NCBI GenBank assembly: GCA_963755715.1
Contig: CAVWLW010000033.1
Span: 1-64,000, forward strand
Direction of reading: 5' to 3'
Source: an uncultured delta proteobacterium
GTDB lineage: Bacteria > Desulfobacterota > Binatia > UBA9968
DNA: 64,000 nucleotides
Made by a program: the position numbers and the translations under genes. Shown here in pieces: positions 32,619-46,343 of this stretch. The notes under the pieces were generated by a model. It did no database searches, was not told the origin of the DNA, and saw nothing but the letters and a program-made list of their open reading frames with translations. Positions within the stretch are counted from its first letter, which is position 1, and each line of letters starts with the position of its first letter.

Positions 32619-32653
32619 AATCCCGGAAACAGAATTTGAAAGGAGACTGTCCA

Positions 32654-34144
32654 ATGACAGCACTAGAGGCTAGAAAGTTAGCCGAAGATGACATGAAAGC
32701 GGGGAAGACCCCGAAATACACCGATTTGCGTGATTGGTTGGAAATCGTCGACAGCATCGGCGAGCTGAAAAAGGTCGATGGCGTCGACTGGAATCTCGAA
32801 ATGGGCACGCTTGCCGAGATCTTTGCCCGTGAGTCCAAGAGCGGCGTGACGCCGGCGGTTTTGTTTGACAACGTCCCGGGTTATCCGAAAGGATTCCGCA
32901 CTCTGTTCGCCCAAAACGCTTCGTTCAAACGCATGGCTTTAAATTTGGGCCTGGACATGAACCTTTCCAGTCTCGATTTGGTTCGCGCCTTCCGCCAAAA
33001 GCTAGTGAGCCATGAGCCGATCAAGCATAAAGTCGTCACCAAAGGCCCCATTCTCGAGAACGTGGATTCCGGCGACAAAGTTGATTTGCTCAAATTTCCC
33101 GTGCCGTTCATGCACGAGCTTGACGGCGGTCGCTTCATCGGCACTGCCTGTTTAGTGACCACGCGCGATCCGGACGAAGGCTGGGTTAATTTCGGCGCTT
33201 ATCGCGGCATGGTGCACGACAAGAACAGCATGGGGCTTTATATTTCGCCCGGCAAGCACGGCAGCATCCAGCGCAATAAATACTTCGAACGCGGCAAGCC
33301 TTGCCCGGTCGTCGTTTCCGTTGGTCAAGACCCGGTTTTGTTCATGGTATCCGGTAACGAAATCGATTACGGCGTTTCCGAGTTCGATTACGCGGGCGGT
33401 CTCAAAGGCGCTCCCGTTGAAGTTATTGAAGGGAAGTCCACCGGGCTTCCGTTTGCGGCCAATGCGGAAATCGTCATCGAAGGTTGGATGGATCCGACGG
33501 ACAGAAAGACCGAAGGTCCGTTCGGCGAATGGACCGGTTACTACGCCAGTTCGAGCCGTCCCGAGCCGGTGATTCGCGTCGAAAACGTTTACTACAGAAA
33601 CGAGCCGATTCTCTGCTGTGCTCGTCCCGGCCGCCCGCCGTCGGATTATTCCATCGCTAAATGCATGGTGAAGGCGGCGTTGATCTGGGAGCAGGTCGAG
33701 AAATGCGGCGTGCCGGATGTCAAAGGGGTGTGGTGTCACGAAGCCGGCGGCGGCCGCCTCTTCAATATCATCTCGATCAAACAGCGCTATCCCGGCCATG
33801 CGCGCCAGGCGATGCTTGCTGCGTCGCAAGTTCACGCCGGCGCTTATCTTGGCCGTTACGTCATCGTCGTCGACGAAGACATCGATCCGACCAACACCTT
33901 CGATGTAATCTGGGCGTTAGCCAGCCGCTCCGATCCGGTGGAGTCGATTGAAATCCTCCGCCGTTGCTGGAGCGGCCCGCTCGATCCGCGCATCCAACCG
34001 GGCAAGAAGGGCTTCAACTCGCGCGCGGTGATCGATGCCTGCCGGCCGTTCGAGTGGATGAAAGACTTCCCGCCGGTAGCCGAATCTTCTCCGGAGCTGA
34101 AGGAGAAGATCTACAACAAGTGGAAGAAAGTTATCGAAGCATAG
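32654..34144 (+). CDS. UbiD-family (prFMN-dependent) decarboxylase
   Basis: HELDGGRF, NFGAYR, AEIVIEG, EGPFGEWTGYY, VVDEDIDP, VIWAL, IDAC. Confidence 0.93.
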   Translation: MTALEARKLAEDDMKAGKTPKYTDLRDWLEIVDSIGELKKVDGVDWNLEMGTLAEIFARESKSGVTPAVLFDNVPGYPKGFRTLFAQNASFKRMALNLGLDMNLSSLDLVRAFRQKLVSHEPIKHKVVTKGPILENVDSGDKVDLLKFPVPFMHELDGGRFIGTACLVTTRDPDEGWVNFGAYRGMVHDKNSMGLYISPGKHGSIQRNKYFERGKPCPVVVSVGQDPVLFMVSGNEIDYGVSEFDYAGGLKGAPVEVIEGKSTGLPFAANAEIVIEGWMDPTDRKTEGPFGEWTGYYASSSRPEPVIRVENVYYRNEPILCCARPGRPPSDYSIAKCMVKAALIWEQVEKCGVPDVKGVWCHEAGGGRLFNIISIKQRYPGHARQAMLAASQVHAGAYLGRYVIVVDEDIDPTNTFDVIWALASRSDPVESIEILRRCWSGPLDPRIQPGKKGFNSRAVIDACRPFEWMKDFPPVAESSPELKEKIYNKWKKVIEA

Positions 34145-37555: not shown

Positions 37556-38323
37556 ATGGGAAAGCTCAGGCATATCGCGTTCATTTCGGCGGAACCTAAG
37601 AAACTCAGCGATTTTTATCAGAAGTATTTCGGCTTCGAGGAGTGCAAGGTCTTTCCTAGCGGCTCGCGTATGGTGATCGATCCGCTTTTCAACTTGGCTT
37701 TCCTGCAAAGAGCGGCGGTGGAAGTGGCGATGGCGGGAACGCACCGAGCCGACGGCAGCGAAAATGAATTGACGATCGGGATCCATCACTATGGCTTCAT
37801 GGTGGATGATCTCGATCGAGCAGTGGCGAAACTGCCGGCTGGATTAACTCGCGGTACTACGCCGCAGGTTTCCGCCGGCGTCGGCGGCCCCGAAGGGGCG
37901 CGGCCTGCCGAGGTCCGGTTCCTCGATCCTTGGGGCAATAACGTCGATCTTTCCTCTCGCGGATTTCTCGGTAGAGAAGAAAAGAAACTTCCCGGCGTGC
38001 GTCTGCTCGCCGTGCAAGTTCCTGATTTGGCTGCGGCCTGTGAATTTTACCAGCGGCAGTTCGATCTCGAGCTCGTCGGCTGGACGGATGATGGAACGGT
38101 CCGCCTGAGCGACGGCACGGTGACGTTGCTATTGACCAAGTCACAAGTGCGGCCGAAGAGCGGCGTGCAATATTTCGGCATTCAAGTGAGCGATCTTGCG
38201 GGCACCAAAAAGCGGTTGCAGGATGGCGGTGTGGCGGTTTCGGAGGCGGGCAGTGGCCAGATTCAATTCACTGACCCGGAAGGAAATCGAGTTGTCGTGT
38301 CGGAAGCGGGTTGGGTGAATTAA
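37556..38323 (+). CDS. Two-domain VOC/glyoxalase-family protein
   Basis: KLRHIAF, GIHHYGF, DPWGNNVDL, DPEGNRV. Confidence 0.85.
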   Translation: MGKLRHIAFISAEPKKLSDFYQKYFGFEECKVFPSGSRMVIDPLFNLAFLQRAAVEVAMAGTHRADGSENELTIGIHHYGFMVDDLDRAVAKLPAGLTRGTTPQVSAGVGGPEGARPAEVRFLDPWGNNVDLSSRGFLGREEKKLPGVRLLAVQVPDLAAACEFYQRQFDLELVGWTDDGTVRLSDGTVTLLLTKSQVRPKSGVQYFGIQVSDLAGTKKRLQDGGVAVSEAGSGQIQFTDPEGNRVVVSEAGWVN

Positions 38324-38526
38324 GCGGACCAGTCTTTCATAAGCTTCAACACAGCCACCGCATGTTCTCGGCTGACAGTTGGAAAATCAGCGAGAAAATC
38401 GTCAAGCCGACCTCCCTCCTCGACATAGTCGATAAGCGTTTGCACCGGGACGCGCGTGCCGGAGAAAACGACGGCACCGCTCATGACTTTTTCTGACCGC
38501 GTGACGAGTGGTTGTGGAACCGGCAT
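38320..38526 (-). CDS. DUF433-family protein (putative antitoxin)
   Basis: MSGAVVFSGTRVPVQTLIDY..G..LDDFLADFPTV; GAGG RBS before ATG 38526. Confidence 0.8.
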   Translation of the reverse strand: MPVPQPLVTRSEKVMSGAVVFSGTRVPVQTLIDYVEEGGRLDDFLADFPTVSREHAVAVLKLMKDWSA

Positions 38527-38760
38527 AGCGCACCTCTTGTTGAATACTTGCGCGTCAAGTAAATCGAAGCTAAAACCGACGTGTTTAACAGGCATCGTCG
38601 AACAGTCTGCTCGGTTAGATAAATCGTCTAGCCCGAAGTCCGTCATATCCCTGCTTGCTGTATTAGCGTGGATATCCAGGCGGGTGTCTACATATCGCAT
38701 ACTTGCCAAAACATACAAACTTAGATTCATGGCAAAGTCGTCCTAAGCGCCGTACTGCCT

Positions 38761-39279
38761 TCATCCGTGATGTATTTCCATCGGCTGAACAAGCTGCGTC
38801 TCCACGTCGCTGGGCAGTTCAATACGTCGCACAATTTTCGGCCAAAGCTCAAGCGGCGGTGCTTTGATCAAAGATGCATTGAGGGTCACGTCATCAAGAT
38901 CGTCGTGCAAGTAAGGGCGACGACCGCAATGGCGCGCGTCACACGACATACGTTTCCCTGGGTAGCACTCGCGCCAGTGGCAGATGCGGCCAATGTAATT
39001 GCCCGCCGGATCAGCCAGGAAGATGTCAGCACCTTTATTTCTGCTCTGCGCGTGCCCCTTCAGTCTTCGGCCTGCAGTCGCCAACGGCTTGAGATCGGCA
39101 TCATCATCCACAGTGACCAACAAATCCGCATCCTTTGGATTTTGTTTGTCTGTCGCCAATGAACCGACGAGAGCGATACGCCGGACTCCAGGACAACTAC
39201 GGGCGCGCTCCACAAAGAACCGGACTTCGGCGAGCAGAGCGTCTCGAATCGTTAGCTCACTGCTTGTTATTTGGGTCAT
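38761..39279 (-). CDS. Minimal nucleotidyltransferase-like protein with a Cys/His-rich insert
   Basis: LVGSL...KDADLLV (GS...DxD), later ADIF; CHWREC...CDARHC. Confidence 0.65.
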   Translation of the reverse strand: MTQITSSELTIRDALLAEVRFFVERARSCPGVRRIALVGSLATDKQNPKDADLLVTVDDDADLKPLATAGRRLKGHAQSRNKGADIFLADPAGNYIGRICHWRECYPGKRMSCDARHCGRRPYLHDDLDDVTLNASLIKAPPLELWPKIVRRIELPSDVETQLVQPMEIHHG

Positions 39280-39306
39280 TGCTTCGTGTATCAGTAAAAG
39301 TGGTCT

Positions 39307-39616
39307 CTACCGCTTCTCCGGTGGAATATTTTGGATAGAAGCCGCGAACTTCGCATGAGCTGCGGGATACTGGCCTGTGCTTAATCTTGGTGCTCGCGGG
39401 GTTCGTGCCGAGGAAGTTGTCGCCCGTCCAGTTCCTCGATGGCCTGATGGGTCTCGGAACGAACCTACCGCCGCAGTTCGGGCAGACGTTATCAAGCACT
39501 CTGTCAACGCACGTTGGGCAGAACGTACATTCATAAGTGCAAATGCGTGCTTCGACTGAACTTGGCGGCAATGCCTGTTGCAGTGTTCGCAGGTCGGGCG
39601 GAGTTCTAGCTAGCAT
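39307..39616 (-). pseudogene. DUF1272-family protein, disrupted
   Basis: Reconstructs to MLELRPTCEHC..LPP.S.EARICTYECTFC...CPNCGG.F.PRPIRP...IPPEKR with three indels, one of them a CTAG duplication. Confidence 0.7.
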
Positions 39617-39932
39617 CGCTCTCTTAATGGACGGCTGACCGCGTTCAAGCAACATCAAAAACTCCTGCTCTGTTTTTCAGCACCGTCAAATCGTCGTCCG
39701 TTGAAATTTATCTTTTCGATCAGCAAGGTGTCAATGACTTTACACTCGTCGTCGTTTCAATGTACCTGATCAATATATCTATATATCTCCGACATACCCG
39801 CGTGGCAGAGGTCCATGGGATATGACCGGCTGCATGAATGCCTGCGGTCACTCCATATTTTGCGCGGCTGGACGCTTGACGCTTTCCGTACGGGAGGTGT
39901 ACTTGTGGCGTAATCCTGAAAGGAGATCAAAA

Positions 39933-40307
39933 ATGCGCGTACTCAAAATGAGTGAACTTGAAGAAAAGCCGATGGACACGGCGACGCCCATCGCCGGCTG
40001 GACGGGTGGAGCAGTGAGCCGGACGCGGCAGGCAATTATTGGCGACGGGCAGTCGGAGAATTTCCGCTGTAACGTGGTCAATTTCCGGGTTGGCGCAACG
40101 ACTGGCTGGCATGTGCACGACTGCGATCAGATTCTTGTCGTCACAGCGGGAAAGGGAAAAGTCGCGAGTGAAACTGAAGAGCGTGATATCACGGTTGGCG
40201 ATGTCGTCCATATCAAAGCCGGAGAGCGTCATTGGCATGGCGCGTCGGCGACTTCGCCGCTGTCGCACATCACAGTGACGACGGTGGGCAGCACGTCGAA
40301 GCATTGA
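39933..40307 (+). CDS. Cupin-domain protein
   Basis: WHVHDCDQIL, GDVVHI.AGERHWHGA; AGGAG RBS. Confidence 0.9.
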   Translation: MRVLKMSELEEKPMDTATPIAGWTGGAVSRTRQAIIGDGQSENFRCNVVNFRVGATTGWHVHDCDQILVVTAGKGKVASETEERDITVGDVVHIKAGERHWHGASATSPLSHITVTTVGSTSKH

Positions 40308-40335
40308 GCAGGGTGGTGACGAAAGGGTTCTCGTG

Positions 40336-40411
40336 CTTCGAGAGGCTCGGCACGAACGGATAGTTCTTCGTCCTTTCAATTGTTTTTCCGTTCATCCTGA
40401 GCGTGTCGAAG
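40336..40411. repeat. Intergenic inverted repeat (CTTCGA..CTCAG..GAACGG type REP/MITE-like)
   Basis: cttcgagaggctcggcacgaacgga ... tccgttcatcctgagcgtgtcgaag, imperfect inverted arms. Confidence 0.65.
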
Positions 40412-40492
40412 GACTCCGAGAGAATCTTTCCGCGTGGTGATCTAGACGTGAACAGGTACTGATCCGGTTTTGGCTTCGGAGGAGGAATACTC

Positions 40493-41383
40493 ATGCAAAT
40501 TCTGAAAGGCGACTTGAGTAACGTCAAAGGAATCCCTCCGAGCGGGCTCTGCGTCGGCGTTCATCGCGCCGGCGCGGTGCATCAGAAGATGGTCGCGAAG
40601 CACGGCGACGGTCTCGCAGTCTGGTCGCTCAGACCCGATCTGGATTTCATTGCTTTCAAAAAGGAAGGGCTGGGCGAACAGGGGATTCGCTCCACCAGTG
40701 ATATGGAATCGATAGACGCCGGTGAAAAACTGATTTACGGCGTGCGCGGGGCGCCGCCCGAGGTGAGAGAAAAGGCGCGTGAGAAAGGCCTCACCCTGCT
40801 GGCCGACGCGACCTGTCCTTTTGTCACGCAGCAGGAAGAGGCGGAGATCGAGCTGCTGAACGCCGGCTGTCATCTGGTGGTTCTCAGCAGTCGCACGCAT
40901 CACGGCATCCCGAGGTTGCAGGGGATCGCGCGAGCGAAAGGCAAAGAAGTTTTTATCGTCGAGCGCGAGGAAGAAGTCGATTCGATTCGGCTCACTCGTT
41001 TCGAGCCCATCGGCGTGATCGTGCAGACGACCTTCTGGCTGGAAACGTACAAGAAAATTATGGCGCGCATACTCGAGCGCTTCGCCAACGTCCAGGTTCG
41101 CAACACTGCCTGCATCGACTCGCTGCAGCGACTTCCGGAGGTAGAAAAGCTAGCTAAACAAGTCGATGCGATAATTATTTTCGGCTGGACCGAAGGCATG
41201 ACGACCCGAATGATCGAAGTCGCCCGCGCTTTCAATGCGGACGTGCACAAAATCGAAAAGGTCGACGACCTCAGGTTGGACTGGCTGCGGGGAAAAGAGA
41301 AAGTGGGTATCATCGGCGCCAACGAGACCCCCGAGTGGATGATCAATGAAGCGATCGAGCGCATCAAAAGCATGGCGGCCTGA
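40493..41383 (+). CDS. IspH/LytB-fold [4Fe-4S] protein with a divergent active site
   Basis: GLCVGVHRA, DATCPFV, QTT, NTAC, VGIIGANETPEW align to IspH; several catalytic residues are replaced. Confidence 0.8.
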   Translation: MQILKGDLSNVKGIPPSGLCVGVHRAGAVHQKMVAKHGDGLAVWSLRPDLDFIAFKKEGLGEQGIRSTSDMESIDAGEKLIYGVRGAPPEVREKAREKGLTLLADATCPFVTQQEEAEIELLNAGCHLVVLSSRTHHGIPRLQGIARAKGKEVFIVEREEEVDSIRLTRFEPIGVIVQTTFWLETYKKIMARILERFANVQVRNTACIDSLQRLPEVEKLAKQVDAIIIFGWTEGMTTRMIEVARAFNADVHKIEKVDDLRLDWLRGKEKVGIIGANETPEWMINEAIERIKSMAA

Positions 41384-41386
41384 GCT

Positions 41387-41668
41387 ATGCCGAAAGTGAC
41401 GTTTATGCCGGTCGGCCAGTCGTTTGAAGTGGCGGCGGGGACGACGATCCTGGTTTCGGCGATCCAGAACGGCTTGCAGCTGCGCCACGACTGCACCGAA
41501 GCGATTTGCGGCACGGACCGGGTGAAGATCCTTTCCGGTAAAGAACAGCTGAGTGAAAAGAATGAGAACGAGGAATTGACCCTCGAAATGATGAACGCGG
41601 GGCCGGACGAAAGACTCGCTTGCGTCGCGCGGGTTGTCGGCGACGTGACTGTCCAAGTGATCGAGTAA
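41387..41668 (+). CDS. 2Fe-2S ferredoxin-like protein (Cys3Asp)
   Basis: MPKVTF, HDCTEAICGTDRV, ERLAC. Confidence 0.85.
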   Translation: MPKVTFMPVGQSFEVAAGTTILVSAIQNGLQLRHDCTEAICGTDRVKILSGKEQLSEKNENEELTLEMMNAGPDERLACVARVVGDVTVQVIE

Positions 41669-41686
41669 ACGACCCAAGGAGGATCG

Positions 41687-42793
41687 ATGGCGGCGCCAGT
41701 GGCGATTCTAGCAAAACCGGACGATCATCGCGGTATTCTCACCATGGCGGAGGCGGTCAATGCTATGATCGAGGCGTTTCGCAATTGGGCGCAGGACCCG
41801 CTGGTGGCGGAGCTTCGGCGGCGCACGCATACGCCGAAGAACGTACGAATTACTTTACACCAGGGCGCCGCGCCGGCTTACGGCACGACGGGCATCATGG
41901 CGCACGCGGAGCTTGTGCGCATTTTCGGCGACAAACAAAAATATCCGCGCCGCGGCCGCCCGGTGCTGGTGCTTTACGACAGCGACACCGCGGCTTTGAA
42001 ACTCATTCTAATCGGCGAAATGCATCCCAAAGAGCTGCCGGATGCAAACAGCGTGGTGGCGATGCCGACGGCCTGCGCTTCGATGGTCGGGACCGATCTG
42101 CTCGCGCGCAAAGATTGCCGGGTCGCGGGGATTTTCGGCGCCGGGGATCAGGCCAGACTGCACCTCCTCGCGCTCACCTGTATTCGGAAATCGATCAATA
42201 AAGTGCGTGTCTTCAGCCCGACCCGCGAAACCCGAGAAAAGTTCGCTGCGGAAATGAGCGCGGTTTTGAGTATCGAAGTCAGCGCCGCTGATTCTGCCGC
42301 AGAGGTGGTCGACGGCGCCGACGTGATCGTGTGCGCGACCAATTCGAACGTTCCTGTCTTTGACGGTAATTGGCTGGTTCCCGGCCAGCATGTCACCTCG
42401 ATCGTTTCGAGCAACATCGGATTGAAAAAGAGAGGCTATGTCGACCAAATGCGCCGTGAGATCGACGAGCGGACTCTGGAGCGCGCCGACATTTTGATGA
42501 CCAATGTTTGGGGACAGGAAGAACTGGACAAGACCGCAGTGTTTTGGGAAGCCTCACTCGATCGTCCGAATATCGCGCGCAAGATCGTCGACGCCGGAGA
42601 GGTGATTCGCGGTGAAAAAAACGGACGGACCGACGCTTCTCAAATCACCTATTTCAAAAACTGCGCGTTTTGGGGCATCGGCGCCGCGGCCATCGGCGGG
42701 CTGATCTACGACAAACTTTTGCAGCAGCGCAAGGGATTGGTGCTCGACTTCAACCCGCATGAATTTTATGACGATGCGTGGACGGAGGATTAG
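41687..42793 (+). CDS. Ornithine cyclodeaminase / mu-crystallin-family protein (divergent)
   Basis: VLYDSDT, GIFGAGDQA, VFSPT, ADVIVCATNS, PGQHV, REID, GR....ITYFKN. Confidence 0.85.
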   Translation: MAAPVAILAKPDDHRGILTMAEAVNAMIEAFRNWAQDPLVAELRRRTHTPKNVRITLHQGAAPAYGTTGIMAHAELVRIFGDKQKYPRRGRPVLVLYDSDTAALKLILIGEMHPKELPDANSVVAMPTACASMVGTDLLARKDCRVAGIFGAGDQARLHLLALTCIRKSINKVRVFSPTRETREKFAAEMSAVLSIEVSAADSAAEVVDGADVIVCATNSNVPVFDGNWLVPGQHVTSIVSSNIGLKKRGYVDQMRREIDERTLERADILMTNVWGQEELDKTAVFWEASLDRPNIARKIVDAGEVIRGEKNGRTDASQITYFKNCAFWGIGAAAIGGLIYDKLLQQRKGLVLDFNPHEFYDDAWTED

Positions 42794-42980
42794 ATCCGGT
42801 TGATTGAGAGAGAATGTGGATTACCGTGAAGATGATTAAAGTGAGGGATGCTTAGATTGCGCGGAACAACTCCGAGGAAGAGACGACAGATGGCTGACTG
42901 AGATGATTGGCGGAGATGCGTTCATGTCAGCCGCACGCCAAGTACGCCCAGATAGGCTGTCGACCGAAAAAGGATTAGCG

Positions 42981-43535
42981 ATGCCTTACATCAGAACCAT
43001 TCCGCCGCAGAGGCGACCGGCAAGCTCAAAGAAGTTTACGAGTCGCTGGCGGCGGGCCTTCGGCGGCGAGGGGAAAAGTCGCGATGGTGCGCCAAGTGCA
43101 GAGTTTGAATCCCGACGCTCTCATGGCGTGGAGCGACCTAGGCGCTGAGATCATGCACGGGCGGTCGAACTATTACGCGGCGCCAGCGCGAAATGATCGC
43201 GACCGTCGTGTCGGCGACGAATCACTGTAGCTATTGAACGACCGCTCACGGAGAGGCTCTCCGTACAGAGACCGACGACGATCCGTTCGTCGAAGCGATC
43301 AAGCAGGACTACACCAAAGTCGATTTGCCGGCCGAATGAGCGGGCGATGTTGGACTACGCTGTAAAGCTCACCATCGCACCGTCGAGCGTCGGGGAGGAA
43401 GACATCAAAATCTTGCGCTCACACGGCTTCGACGATCGCGATATCCTCGACATCATCTACGTGATTTGTCTGTACAACTTTAACGATCGGATCGCCGATG
43501 CCACAGGAATCAAAGCACACGATTTTCTTCGATAA
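42981..43535 (+). CDS. AhpD/carboxymuconolactone-decarboxylase-like peroxidase-related protein, putative selenoprotein (in-frame TGA 43235-43237; several additional indels)
   Basis: MPYIRTI...GKLKEVY...REMIATVVSATNHCSY-TGA-TTAHGEAL...AMLDYAVKLT...LRSHGFDDRDILDI...YNFNDRIADATG. Confidence 0.75.
43248..43264 (+). promoter_or_regulatory. SECIS-like hairpin
   Basis: ACGGAGA-GGC-TCTCCGT perfect stem beginning 11 nt after the TGA, with a G-led apical loop. Confidence 0.55.
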
Positions 43536-43642
43536 GGGATCAACTAGTTATTTGCAGAAATAGGTTCAATGATCACGACAGGGCCTCGGAACGAAGCTAA
43601 CGGTGTGCGTTCGGCAAGCACCCTAGCTGAAGGAAAGATTGG

Positions 43643-44431
43643 ATGATCGAGCTCTATCACAACGACATGTCGGTGTGCGCGCAAAAAGTTCGATTCACGC
43701 TCGCGGAGAAAAAGCTTGCGTGGGAAGGCCATCATTTGAATCTTCGCGCCGGCGATCAACAGGAACCGGAATATTTGAAGCTCAATCCGAATGCTGTGGT
43801 GCCGACCCTCGTAGACGATGGGAATATCATCATCGAGTCCACGGTCATCTGCGAATATCTCGACGACGCCTATCTTGAGCCGAAGCTTAAACCGGTCAAT
43901 GCGCTGGGGCGCGCACGCATGCGCTTGTGGACCAAGCAGCTTGATGAGGGCGTACACGCGGCGACCAGCGTCGTCAGCTCGGCGATCGCGTTTCGTTATC
44001 AAAAGCTTGCCATCGGCATGGAAGCGCTCGAAGAATTCCACAAAAAGATGCCCGATCCGGTGAAGCGGGAAAAGAGCTGGGAGAACGTTACCAAAGGCGT
44101 CGAGTCGCGCTTCTTTCCCGAGGCGATCCAGCGCTTCGACAAATTGCTCGCGGACATGGAGGCTTCATTAAAGGAATCATCGTGGCTCGCCGGAAATGAG
44201 TTTTCCCTCGCAGATATCGGCTACGCGCCGTACATTACCCGGCTCGATCATCTGCAACTGCAATTTCTCTGGGACAAGCGGCCTCATATTCCCGATTGGT
44301 ACGACCGCTTGCGCGAGCGCCGGGCTTACACGGAAGCACTGGAAAAATGGTTCAACGCCAACTATCTGCCGCTGATGAAAGAAAAGGGTCTCGAAGTTCG
44401 CGACAAAGTCAAAGCGATCGTGGCGGAATAA
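43643..44431 (+). CDS. Glutathione S-transferase-family protein
   Basis: SVCAQKVR, YLKLNPNAVVPTL, ESTVICEYLD, FSLADI. Confidence 0.92.
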   Translation: MIELYHNDMSVCAQKVRFTLAEKKLAWEGHHLNLRAGDQQEPEYLKLNPNAVVPTLVDDGNIIIESTVICEYLDDAYLEPKLKPVNALGRARMRLWTKQLDEGVHAATSVVSSAIAFRYQKLAIGMEALEEFHKKMPDPVKREKSWENVTKGVESRFFPEAIQRFDKLLADMEASLKESSWLAGNEFSLADIGYAPYITRLDHLQLQFLWDKRPHIPDWYDRLRERRAYTEALEKWFNANYLPLMKEKGLEVRDKVKAIVAE

Positions 44432-45183: not shown

Positions 45184-46343
45184 ATGAAATTCTCAATCTT
45201 CATGATGCCGCTGCATCATCCGACAGAAAATCCGTCGCTGGCGTTCGATCGCGATATCTCGCTGATCCACTATGCGGAAGAGCTTGGCTATGACGAGTTC
45301 TTTATCGGCGAGCATCACTCCGGCGGTTGGGAAACCATGCCCGCGCCGGAAATGGCTCTGGCCAAAGCATCGGCGCATGCCCACCGCATTCGCCTTGGCA
45401 CGTCGGTCATCAGCGTGCCGTTTCATCATCCGTTTCACGTCGCCGAGCGGATGGCGTTTCTCGATCATCTCACGAAGGGCCGCGCTATTCTCGGCGTCGG
45501 CCCCTGCGCTCTGGTCACGGACAAGAATCTTTTCGGCCTCGCTACTGAAAAGCTCTACCCGATGATGGCTGAGTCGGTGGATATCATCGTACGCTTGCTC
45601 GAATCGCCCGAGCCGATCGACTACGACGGTCAGTACTGGAAGATCCATCAAATGCGCTTGCAGCTCCGTTCCTACCAACAGCCGCGCATGCCGCTCGCGA
45701 TCGCGTCGTCGGGGAATCCGGTGAGCCTCGAACTGGCCGGCAAGTACGGCATGCTGTTTCTGTCGCCGGCGGGGAAAAATAAGAGAAACAATCAAACCAA
45801 GGCGGAACAATGGAATGACGTCGAAGCGTATCGCCAGCGAAGTCACGGCACGCAAACTTCGCGCGACAATTGGCGCATCGCAACCTGCGTGTATCTCGCC
45901 GACAGCCGGGAAGAGCGTGGCGCGATGTCGAGGAGAATGTCGCGCGCGACATGCAGTATTTTTTCGCCATCGGTCTGAAAGCTCCTTACGAGGCGTACCC
46001 TGGACAGCCGGCGCAAGAAATCACGCCGCGTTCCGGCGCCGACCGGCGCGACTGGATTATCGGCACGCCGGACGACGCGATCGCGCAGATCGAACGCATG
46101 CAGACGGAAACCGGCGGCTTCGGCGGGCTTATGTTGACCACACATGAGTGGGCGAGCACGGAAAAGCTGCGGCACTCTTATGAGCTTTTCGCGCGCTACG
46201 TCATGCCGCACTTTCGCGGCCATACTCAAGGATACCGCGACGAGTGGCAGCGCATTCAGCAAGCAGTCACGAACGGCGGCAGTAAACTCACTCACACCGA
46301 TCAGCCGAGCGATCTGTCGAGTAAAGCTGGCGCGAGGTCATAA
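45184..46343 (+). CDS. LLM-class flavin-dependent monooxygenase (limonene monooxygenase-like; frameshift near 45915)
   Basis: FMMPLHHP.ENP, GEHHSGGWE, IRLGTSV, LDHLTKGR; C-terminus IIGTPDD...SYELFARYVMPHF in ORF 45870..46343. Confidence 0.88.

Follow-up and report, generated by a model that had tools for sequence, protein, structure and literature searches.

An accessory LytB-family protein with exchanged diphosphate-binding residues and a constant ferredoxin partner in Binatia

We describe a gene of the LytB/IspH family in a 64,000-nucleotide stretch of DNA (positions 1 to 64,000 of contig CAVWLW010000033.1, assembly GCA_963755715.1), hereafter the window, which comes from an uncultured delta proteobacterium of the Binatia (Desulfobacterota). 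The gene, taken from the open reading frame (ORF) list and characterised with Pfam and NCBIfam models, alignments and AlphaFold2, occupies positions 40493..41383 of the + strand and encodes, from an ATG start, a protein of 296 amino acids that we refer to as IspH-like. It is preceded by the Shine-Dalgarno sequence GGAGGAGGAA (40478..40487, + strand, by sequence reading), which ends 5 nt before the ATG, and its stop codon is followed 3 nt later by the start of a gene for a 2Fe-2S-type ferredoxin of 93 amino acids (41387..41668, + strand), the predicted electron donor. A further 18 nt past the ferredoxin lies the gene of an ornithine cyclodeaminase (OCD)/mu-crystallin family protein of 368 amino acids (41687..42793, + strand), which has its own strong ribosome-binding site, AAGGAGGA. 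Scanning 39300-43700 for promoters and terminators returned 3 promoter-like sites (1.7±1.4 expected) and 6 terminator-like sites (4.7±1.8 expected), none of either kind usefully placed on the + strand. Contigs from soil RNA libraries (4 runs, 4 studies; 90-100% likeness) overlap parts of the IspH-like gene and span both its junction with the ferredoxin (41246-41473) and that between ferredoxin and OCD (41657-41813 and 41675-41893), which lends weak support to transcription of the gene and to its co-transcription with the ferredoxin and OCD; the support is weak because it consists of contigs only, without a silent-stretch control, and stretches without RNA contigs (e.g. 40508-40708) carry no evidential weight.

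That the protein has the IspH fold, as a sequence-only reading of this DNA had claimed, is borne out by profiles and by structure prediction alike. With a cut-off of 24.5, the Pfam LYTB profile (PF02401) scores the protein at 153.9 bits over its full length, residues 16-292 being aligned to positions 6-267 of the 267 in the profile, and the best solved relatives by phmmer are IspH of A. aeolicus (3dnf, E 9e-34) and of E. coli (E ~1e-18). The equivalog models of NCBIfam are missed, with scores of 138 vs a cut-off of 187.85 for TIGR00216 and 143.4 vs 276 for NF002187, and the protein also falls far below every cut-off of six further NCBIfam IspH models. An AlphaFold2 model from a 112-row alignment (mean predicted local distance difference test score, pLDDT, 95.0; predicted template modelling score, pTM, 0.89) has the three-domain alpha/beta trefoil of the LytB/IspH superfamily, and in a Foldseek search of the PDB all 11 matches listed at E<=1e-15 are IspH, with template modelling (TM) scores to closed E. 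coli forms of 0.78-0.84 (3szu_A 0.84, 3ke8_A 0.81). The next matches, at E>1e-3, include the fold cousins Dph2 (6q2e_B, E 2.7e-3) and NadA (5f35, E 4.5e-2). Matches in the ESM Atlas fall in LytB clusters only, and a Pfam scan finds no fused DNA-binding or signalling domain. The protein is clearly a member of the LytB superfamily and, by its function-defining residues, not IspH.

Residues were mapped to canonical IspH by three routes, namely phmmer against solved IspH chains, a MAFFT alignment in which 37 clade and 2 outlying sequences were set beside 73 canonical ones, and profile-profile alignment of 22 clade versus 50 canonical sequences with hhalign, and the motif changes listed in the sequence-only reading hold throughout. 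The three cysteines it had noted are found in GLC20VGV, DATC108PFV and NTAC207; they align to the invariant cysteines of the 73 canonical sequences, are kept in all clade rows covering them, and would hold a [4Fe-4S] cluster with one free iron. The QTT motif is likewise kept as Gln178-Thr179-Thr180, corresponding to E. coli Thr167/168, with Thr179 at the place of Thr167 in 37/37 clade rows, and so are Val23 and Val111, which adjoin the cluster. The reading had also held that the diphosphate-binding and catalytic residues are lost, which is correct for E. coli His41, His74, Glu126, Ser225 and Asn227 but not for His124, retained as His136 in 37/37 clade rows; a change that it had not listed, Ser269 to Glu278, comes in addition. 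The His of the HN motif is absent, no His occurring in residues 44-56, and its place is taken by Asp51 according to MAFFT and hhalign (pairwise alignments give Leu50 or Phe52), with Phe52 or Ile53 in place of the Asn that follows. AHG has become V84-R85-G86, with Arg85 at the position of His74, and the S-x-N position reads E234-G235-M236, so that Glu234 stands for Ser225 and Met236 for Asn227. HPEV has become H136-H137-G138-I139 according to HMMER and hhalign, which set His137-Gly138 against Pro125-Glu126; MAFFT opens a 3-residue insertion and pairs Glu126 with Arg141, and no acidic residue is placed there by this route either.

The replacements are characteristic of the clade, and their pattern is not due to chance. 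Among its 37 aligned members Arg85 and Arg141 occur in 37 each, Glu234 and Met236 in 36 each and Glu278 in 35, and the position of His41 is Asp or Glu in 36/37; in the 73 canonical sequences His41 is found in 72, His74 in 71, Glu126 in 72, and Ser225, Asn227 and Ser269 in 73 each. Ser225, Asn227 and Ser269 are diphosphate ligands in IspH:HMBPP structures, where HMBPP is the 4-hydroxy-3-methylbut-2-enyl ester of diphosphate, the substrate of canonical IspH. Of the residues by which an HMBPP reductase is recognised, Glu126, the pair His41/His74 and the set Ser225/Asn227/Ser269 are all missing, and His124 and Thr167 are present; turnover of HMBPP would not be expected of this protein. In the accessible part of a review of IspH, the E126Q variant retains 0.3% activity, E126A/D and H124A/F are nearly inactive, T167 stabilises the CH2OH group of the substrate, and His42 and His124 hold the diphosphate (PMC8837944). 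Since His124 is kept, part of the proton and anion machinery therefore appears to survive. Read from the alignments, the half of the active site that faces the reacting end of the substrate appears preserved (open iron, Thr, His124, hydrophobic wall), and the half that anchors the diphosphate appears exchanged for three invariant arginines, an extra His and an Asn, plus three carboxylates in most members.

The substitutions are maintained over considerable evolutionary distance. Among 22 clade sequences of 40-92% identity the residues R47, R85, Q114, E115, S132, H136, H137, G138, R141, D209, S210, P215 and N277 are invariant. Nonsynonymous to synonymous rate ratios (dN/dS, Nei-Gojobori) among 47 intact coding sequences have a median of 0.126 and a range of 0.033-0.273 (513/1081 pairs with dS 0.05-1.5), and are 0.03-0.06 between the window gene and its nearest relatives. 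The gene is under strong purifying selection, and the prospect raised in the sequence-only reading, that homologues might not conserve the substitutions because selection had relaxed, has not materialised: they are conserved to 40% identity, and at dN/dS values of 0.03-0.27 selection is not relaxed. A quick maximum-likelihood tree of 99 rows separates 26 non-canonical from 73 canonical sequences with an SH-like approximate likelihood ratio (SH-aLRT) support of 99, the close clade having been thinned from 34 rows to 16 and the canonical rows being the best matches to the query, hence an unbalanced sample of IspH. A word-indexed protein search at E<=1e-5 gave 371 relatives; identity is 72-94% throughout the best 120, and most of these are named HMBPP reductase or hypothetical. 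An exhaustive search of representatives at 50% identity found a few clade proteins at 229-611 bits, P0142 and P0143 at about 140 bits, and ordinary IspH at no more than 131 bits and about 30% identity, which leaves a score gap below the clade. The distant relatives P0125, P0128, P0142, P0143, P0126 and P0132 are all singleton clusters, one of them named HMBPP reductase. In one metagenome-assembled genome (MAG) the gene appears as two overlapping pieces, residues 1-223 and 87-296 (L024, G548:C427:468-1732), a copy that is disrupted or misassembled.

The IspH-like gene is not the MEP-pathway (methylerythritol phosphate) terminal enzyme of its genome. On contig 6 of the window's genome (G000; 7.4 Mb in 76 contigs) there is a canonical IspH that scores 316 bits to PF02401 with its HN, AHG, SxN and SGAS motifs intact, and the IspH-like copy scores 153.6 bits in the same genome-wide search. 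The pattern recurs in 5/5 other carriers from four genera (canonical copy 311-322 bits, IspH-like copy 146-158 bits), giving a canonical copy in 6/6 carriers checked, and the IspH-like gene is a conserved second, accessory copy. It is carried by 29/301 genomes of the class, that of the window included, all 29 of which belong to one order: 4/25 other genomes of its own family (1/5 others of its own genus), 21/21 in one genus of a second family, 3/3 in a third family and none in any of the 17 remaining families. A phylum-wide search found it in 0/400 other genomes at E<=1e-50, which says little because only 13 of the genomes sampled belong to the window's class. When metagenome contigs were scanned with distant members, seven more loci were recovered, 50-55% identical to the window protein and with a GC content of 0.44-0.68; because these keep the clade motifs SLRP, GVRGAPP, HHG, QTTFW, GWTEGM and GANETP, the family is not confined to Binatia.

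The ferredoxin that the sequence-only reading had placed beside the gene is confirmed by a match to Pfam Fer2 (PF00111) of 43.1 bits against a cut-off of 21. The plant/adrenodoxin-type pattern C-x4-C-x2-C ... C needs four cysteines and the window ferredoxin has three, arranged as H34-D35-C36-x4-C41-G-T-D44 ... C79, with an Asp44 at the usual position of the third ligand that is invariant in 26/26 orthologues. Ligation of a cluster by aspartate is known from E. coli SdhB, and the arrangement suggests an unusual Cys3Asp-ligated [2Fe-2S] cluster. Outside one genus, the ferredoxin lies downstream of the IspH-like gene in 34/37 loci (27 of the close group and 7/7 distant metagenome loci), and two of the three loci without it stop at a contig edge. 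In the excepted genus, where a UbiD-family decarboxylase takes its place, a ferredoxin orthologue of 64-69% identity is found elsewhere in 5/5 genomes checked, beside a gene with a metallo-beta-lactamase (MBL) fold. In the third family an MBL-fold gene precedes the IspH-like-ferredoxin pair, and because the same MBL gene adjoins both arrangements the ancestral order was probably MBL, IspH-like, ferredoxin. The ferredoxin is the sole constant partner gene of the IspH-like gene.

Prediction of a complex between enzyme and ferredoxin, with both clusters included and three control pairings, gives a score of 0.69 (0.69, 0.67 and 0.69 in three runs) against 0.00 for the best control. A score of 0.69 is attained by 116/157 solved complexes and by 2/215 mismatched pairs, counts that are only rough because the calibration was ligand-free and used other alignments than those used here. 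The runs share at least 91% of their contacts, with a partner pLDDT of at least 91. On the enzyme the predicted interface comprises residues 12-17, 21, 24-25, 28, 109-110, 208 and 211, which flank Cys20, Cys108 and Cys207, and on the ferredoxin it comprises the cluster loop (residues 33-45) and residues 64-70. In the predicted complex the two cluster sites face each other with the geometry expected for electron transfer, which would support binding. We know of no solved complex of IspH with a ferredoxin.

Beyond the ferredoxin the neighbourhoods vary. In the excepted genus the UbiD-family decarboxylase is directly downstream of the IspH-like gene in 25/25 loci, and a UbiD lies within the same cluster in 3/7 distant loci; in two loci (L076, L077) the order is IspH-like, ferredoxin, MarR, UbiD, one further ORF and glutathione S-transferase (GST), with the UbiD in the same orthogroup (54-56% identity). 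The best solved relative of the linked UbiD is 7pda, the phenazine-1-carboxylate decarboxylase PhdA, and such a PhdA-like UbiD is linked to the IspH-like gene in two subclades. The two subclades closest to the window contribute 30 further loci, none of which (0/30) has a UbiD within 6 kb. In the UbiD-linked genus the IspH-like-UbiD pair is followed by genes for a protein of SLOG/LOG-like type (LDcluster4, 134-137 bits) and for a transporter of the AI-2E family (L026:8444-9016 and 24 other loci). The window has a UbiD-family gene of its own (32636..34144, + strand), which we reject as a module partner: it lies 6.3 kb upstream of the IspH-like gene and is 45% identical to the operon-linked type, the true orthologue (71% identity) being found on contig 62 among unrelated genes (C62:22846-24291), and its nearness is possibly due to chance because the genome has 61 UbiD matches. 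This expansion, 61 matches in 7.4 Mb, compares with 28-45 in five same-genus genomes, and only two Flavoprotein-family (UbiX/CoaC-type) genes are found in the window's genome, both on other contigs.

OCD was considered as a fixed partner and rejected, as it is present in 10/27 close loci and in no other subclade; a hydroxy-imino-acid substrate (a hydroxyproline-derived pyrroline carboxylate), which OCD might bring to mind, is pure speculation. In certain close loci OCD is followed by a protein of 301 amino acids with a C-terminal 2x[4Fe-4S] domain (L004:8369-9271 and six others; not in the window), related to reductive dehalogenases and QueG (TIGR02486 108.6 bits, below cut-off) and much shorter than a typical RdhA. 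AhpD/CMD-like proteins, GSTs, a nitroreductase and a GntR regulator also recur in the neighbourhoods, and distant loci add subunits of a Rieske dioxygenase, an aldehyde dehydrogenase and an enoyl-CoA hydratase. Within the window, a GST gene (43643..44431, + strand) has homologues clustered with the IspH-like gene in L076 and L077 (39-40% identity) and in L007 and L018 (85-87%), and a Cupin_2 gene (39822..40307, + strand), separated from the IspH-like gene by a 185-nt gap, is found in the vicinity of the module in just 5 close loci. The IspH-like gene and its ferredoxin form a portable two-gene redox module that is found in catabolic and detoxifying settings and not in an isoprenoid operon.

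Further features of the window are recorded here for completeness. An AhpD/CMD-like gene remnant (42981..43535, + strand) loses its frame right after MPYIRTIPP, with only its C-terminal 62 amino acids still open; it represents a pseudogene or else reflects an error of assembly. Its 'peroxidase-related' counterparts in other loci are intact (L003:7226-7780, L004:4797-5440) and carry an in-frame TGA within a C-x-x-U motif (…HCSYU…, …GCRFU…), which is the expectation for AhpD-like selenoproteins. A luciferase-like monooxygenase at 45184-46343 appears split between the ORFs 45184-45978 and 45870-46343, whose overlap is suggestive of a frameshift. On the - strand at 38320-39658, immediately upstream of the cupin, a run of small genes (DUF433, a DUF6932 nucleotidyltransferase-like gene and a DUF1272 zinc-ribbon gene) may be a toxin-antitoxin-like insert.

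We favour, as probable though with real reserve, an explanation in which the IspH-like protein is a neofunctionalised, ferredoxin-driven [4Fe-4S] reductase for an anionic substrate other than a diphosphate. The sequence-only reading had proposed a neofunctionalised enzyme with a new substrate, and the proposal gains from the conserved substitutions, the dN/dS values, the canonical copy in 6/6 carriers, the failed equivalog cut-offs and the conserved ferredoxin with its predicted docking. No computational test capable of overturning the proposal did so. In this model the protein would keep the three-domain fold and, on its three cysteines, a [4Fe-4S] cluster whose one free iron binds the substrate; the retained Thr would position the hydroxyl of the substrate, and the equivalent of His124 would still be available. 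The diphosphate-binding ring and Glu126 would have given way to Arg47, Asp51, Arg85, His137, Gly138, Arg141, Glu234, Met236, Asn277 and Glu278, and the 2Fe-2S ferredoxin would deliver electrons from a docked position over the cluster's cysteine side. An IspH-type two-electron reaction would follow at the free iron, most likely one that reductively strips an allylic or benzylic hydroxyl from the substrate, so that the enzyme is probably a dehydroxylase. The tail of the substrate would be an anion held by the arginines, carboxylate-like or possibly a monophosphate or sulfonate; a carboxylate is the most plausible and fits the recurrence of UbiD-type decarboxylases of aromatic and unsaturated acids and of a MarR regulator. 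Acids resembling the 4-hydroxy-3-methylbut-2-enyl (HMB) group, hydroxymethyl-aryl acids and, from the LOG-like neighbour, zeatin-type side chains may be named as candidate substrates by way of speculation. Because the accessory module sits among UbiD, MarR, GST, AhpD-like and OCD genes, its role is probably catabolic or detoxifying rather than one in isoprenoid synthesis.

Several observations weigh against this explanation or loosen it. P0125 and P0128, the most distant members, do not retain Glu234 and Glu278, and the new Arg, His and Glu residues could pair with each other instead of lining the pocket. The kept His124, Thr167 and near-cluster hydrophobic residues would still be compatible with an HMB-type head group, or even with HMBPP bound in another mode. 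The cluster of the ferredoxin is itself something that we infer, because only three cysteines are available to ligate it. Four subclades have four neighbourhoods (CMD/OCD/reductive dehalogenase-like; UbiD/LOG-like; 3-deoxy-D-arabino-heptulosonate 7-phosphate (DAHP) synthase/MBL; MarR/UbiD/GST), and because these differ no single pathway is indicated. Finally, the RNA signal consists of contigs only, and DNA contamination of RNA libraries can produce such a signal.

It is quite improbable, in our judgement, that the protein is still an isoprenoid-type reductase that either accepts HMBPP in another mode or converts the corresponding monophosphate (HMBP) to dimethylallyl phosphate, from which UbiX would make the prenylated flavin mononucleotide (prFMN) of UbiD enzymes. 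The head-group machinery (three cysteines, Thr179, His136, Val23/Val111) is kept, three invariant arginines could hold a phosphate, and the UbiD placed directly downstream in 25/25 loci of one genus and in-cluster in 3/7 distant loci, together with the 61 UbiD matches of the window's genome, gives this idea its appeal. The association nevertheless loosens on inspection: in the two nearest subclades none of 30 other loci has a UbiD within 6 kb, and the neighbourhoods examined contain no UbiX, both Flavoprotein-family genes of the window's genome lying on other contigs. Five same-genus genomes that do without the IspH-like gene have 28-45 UbiD matches, and four of these five hold an orthologue of the linked UbiD (87-95% identity); since UbiD-rich genomes of the same genus manage without it, the IspH-like gene is not needed for general cofactor supply, and we reject it as a general supplier of the UbiD cofactor. 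The acidic Asp51, Glu234 and Glu278 at former diphosphate-ligand positions, and the loss of Glu126, also speak against either isoprenoid substrate.

That the protein might be a redox-neutral Fe-S lyase or hydratase, its free iron acting as a Lewis acid and the ferredoxin merely keeping the cluster reduced or repaired, we consider unlikely, given a ferredoxin whose gene keeps its translational coupling over 40-97% identity and whose predicted docking brings it within electron-transfer distance of the cluster ligands, which points to a stoichiometric supply of electrons. Precedent for such chemistry exists in NadA (quinolinate synthase), which performs a non-reductive reaction on the same fold with the free iron as Lewis acid and which is a weak Foldseek match to our model (5f35, E 4.5e-2), and the lost proton-donor Glu fits an altered mechanism. 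IspH too, in the accessible part of the review cited above, forms an aldehyde or ketone by hydrating alkyne analogues (PMC8837944). An altogether non-enzymatic protein, be it an Fe-S sensor of redox state, iron or oxygen, a cluster carrier or a decaying duplicate, strikes us as very improbable: dN/dS values of 0.03-0.27 and invariant replacement residues speak against decay, the replaced positions are more conserved than a vacated pocket would require, and a sensor gains nothing from the lack of a fused DNA-binding or signalling domain. The ferredoxin coupling and the strict retention of the new residues tell against both this and the redox-neutral reading. What lends the non-enzymatic notion some substance is that the catalytic Glu and substrate-binding residues are gone, that the gene is a patchy accessory one (4/25 other genomes of its family, 1/5 others of its genus) with one MAG copy broken in two pieces, and that a sensing role for the IspH cluster is proposed in the accessible part of a paper on IspH fusions (PMC4746011).

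Returning to the ferredoxin-driven reductase, it may be carried a step further, tentatively and with more doubt than conviction: the clade could add a fourth type of function to the IspH/NadA/Dph2 fold, that of an organometallic [4Fe-4S] reductase coupled to ferredoxin, which would perform allylic or benzylic dehydroxylation of a carboxylate-bearing or other non-diphosphate metabolite and, alongside a prFMN decarboxylase of the PhdA-like kind, serve soil and sponge bacteria in breaking down aromatic or unsaturated acids. To our knowledge such a dehydroxylation is recorded for no Fe-S enzyme of this fold. IspH is among the very few enzymes with organometallic catalysis at an open [4Fe-4S] iron, and we know of only one physiological reaction for it. 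A natural, conserved paralogue that appears to keep the cluster site, to have exchanged the anchoring ring and to bring its own ferredoxin would therefore offer a direct route to further uses of this open-iron chemistry. Hundreds of database entries named 'HMBPP reductase' are probably misannotated, and in metabolic reconstructions of Binatia and related soil bacteria the IspH-like gene should not be counted as the IspH of the MEP pathway. Literature searches outside subscription-only papers, and the accessible parts of PMC8837944 and PMC4746011, turned up no account of an IspH clade without the catalytic residues.

Set beside known systems, the IspH-like protein shares with canonical IspH the Pfam family, the three-domain fold (TM 0.81-0.84), the cluster cysteines, His124, Thr167/168, the near-cluster Val residues and, presumably, a dependence on reduced ferredoxin. 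It differs in being only 20-27% identical by structural alignment, in falling below the NCBIfam cut-offs for IspH, in the replacement of six pocket residues, and in being accessory and having a ferredoxin in its own operon. LytB1 and LytB2 of M. tuberculosis both have the canonical catalytic and diphosphate residues, which the window protein lacks, and both are regarded as HMBPP reductases. The likeness here is that of two non-redundant LytB-family genes in one genome, as given in the accessible part of the source (PMC4550268). The IspH-RPS1 and IspH-UbiA fusions, as far as the accessible part of a family-wide survey describes them, are likewise non-standard members that link the family to other functions, aromatic prenyl chemistry included; theirs is a catalytically canonical IspH domain, whereas the window protein stands alone and its pocket appears rebuilt (PMC4746011). 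Neither NadA nor Dph2 has a detectable sequence relationship to the window protein. These are the other two families that combine the pseudo-threefold fold with a [4Fe-4S] cluster having one open iron, and each has a chemistry of its own, dehydration and condensation in NadA and a reaction like that of radical S-adenosylmethionine (SAM) enzymes in Dph2.

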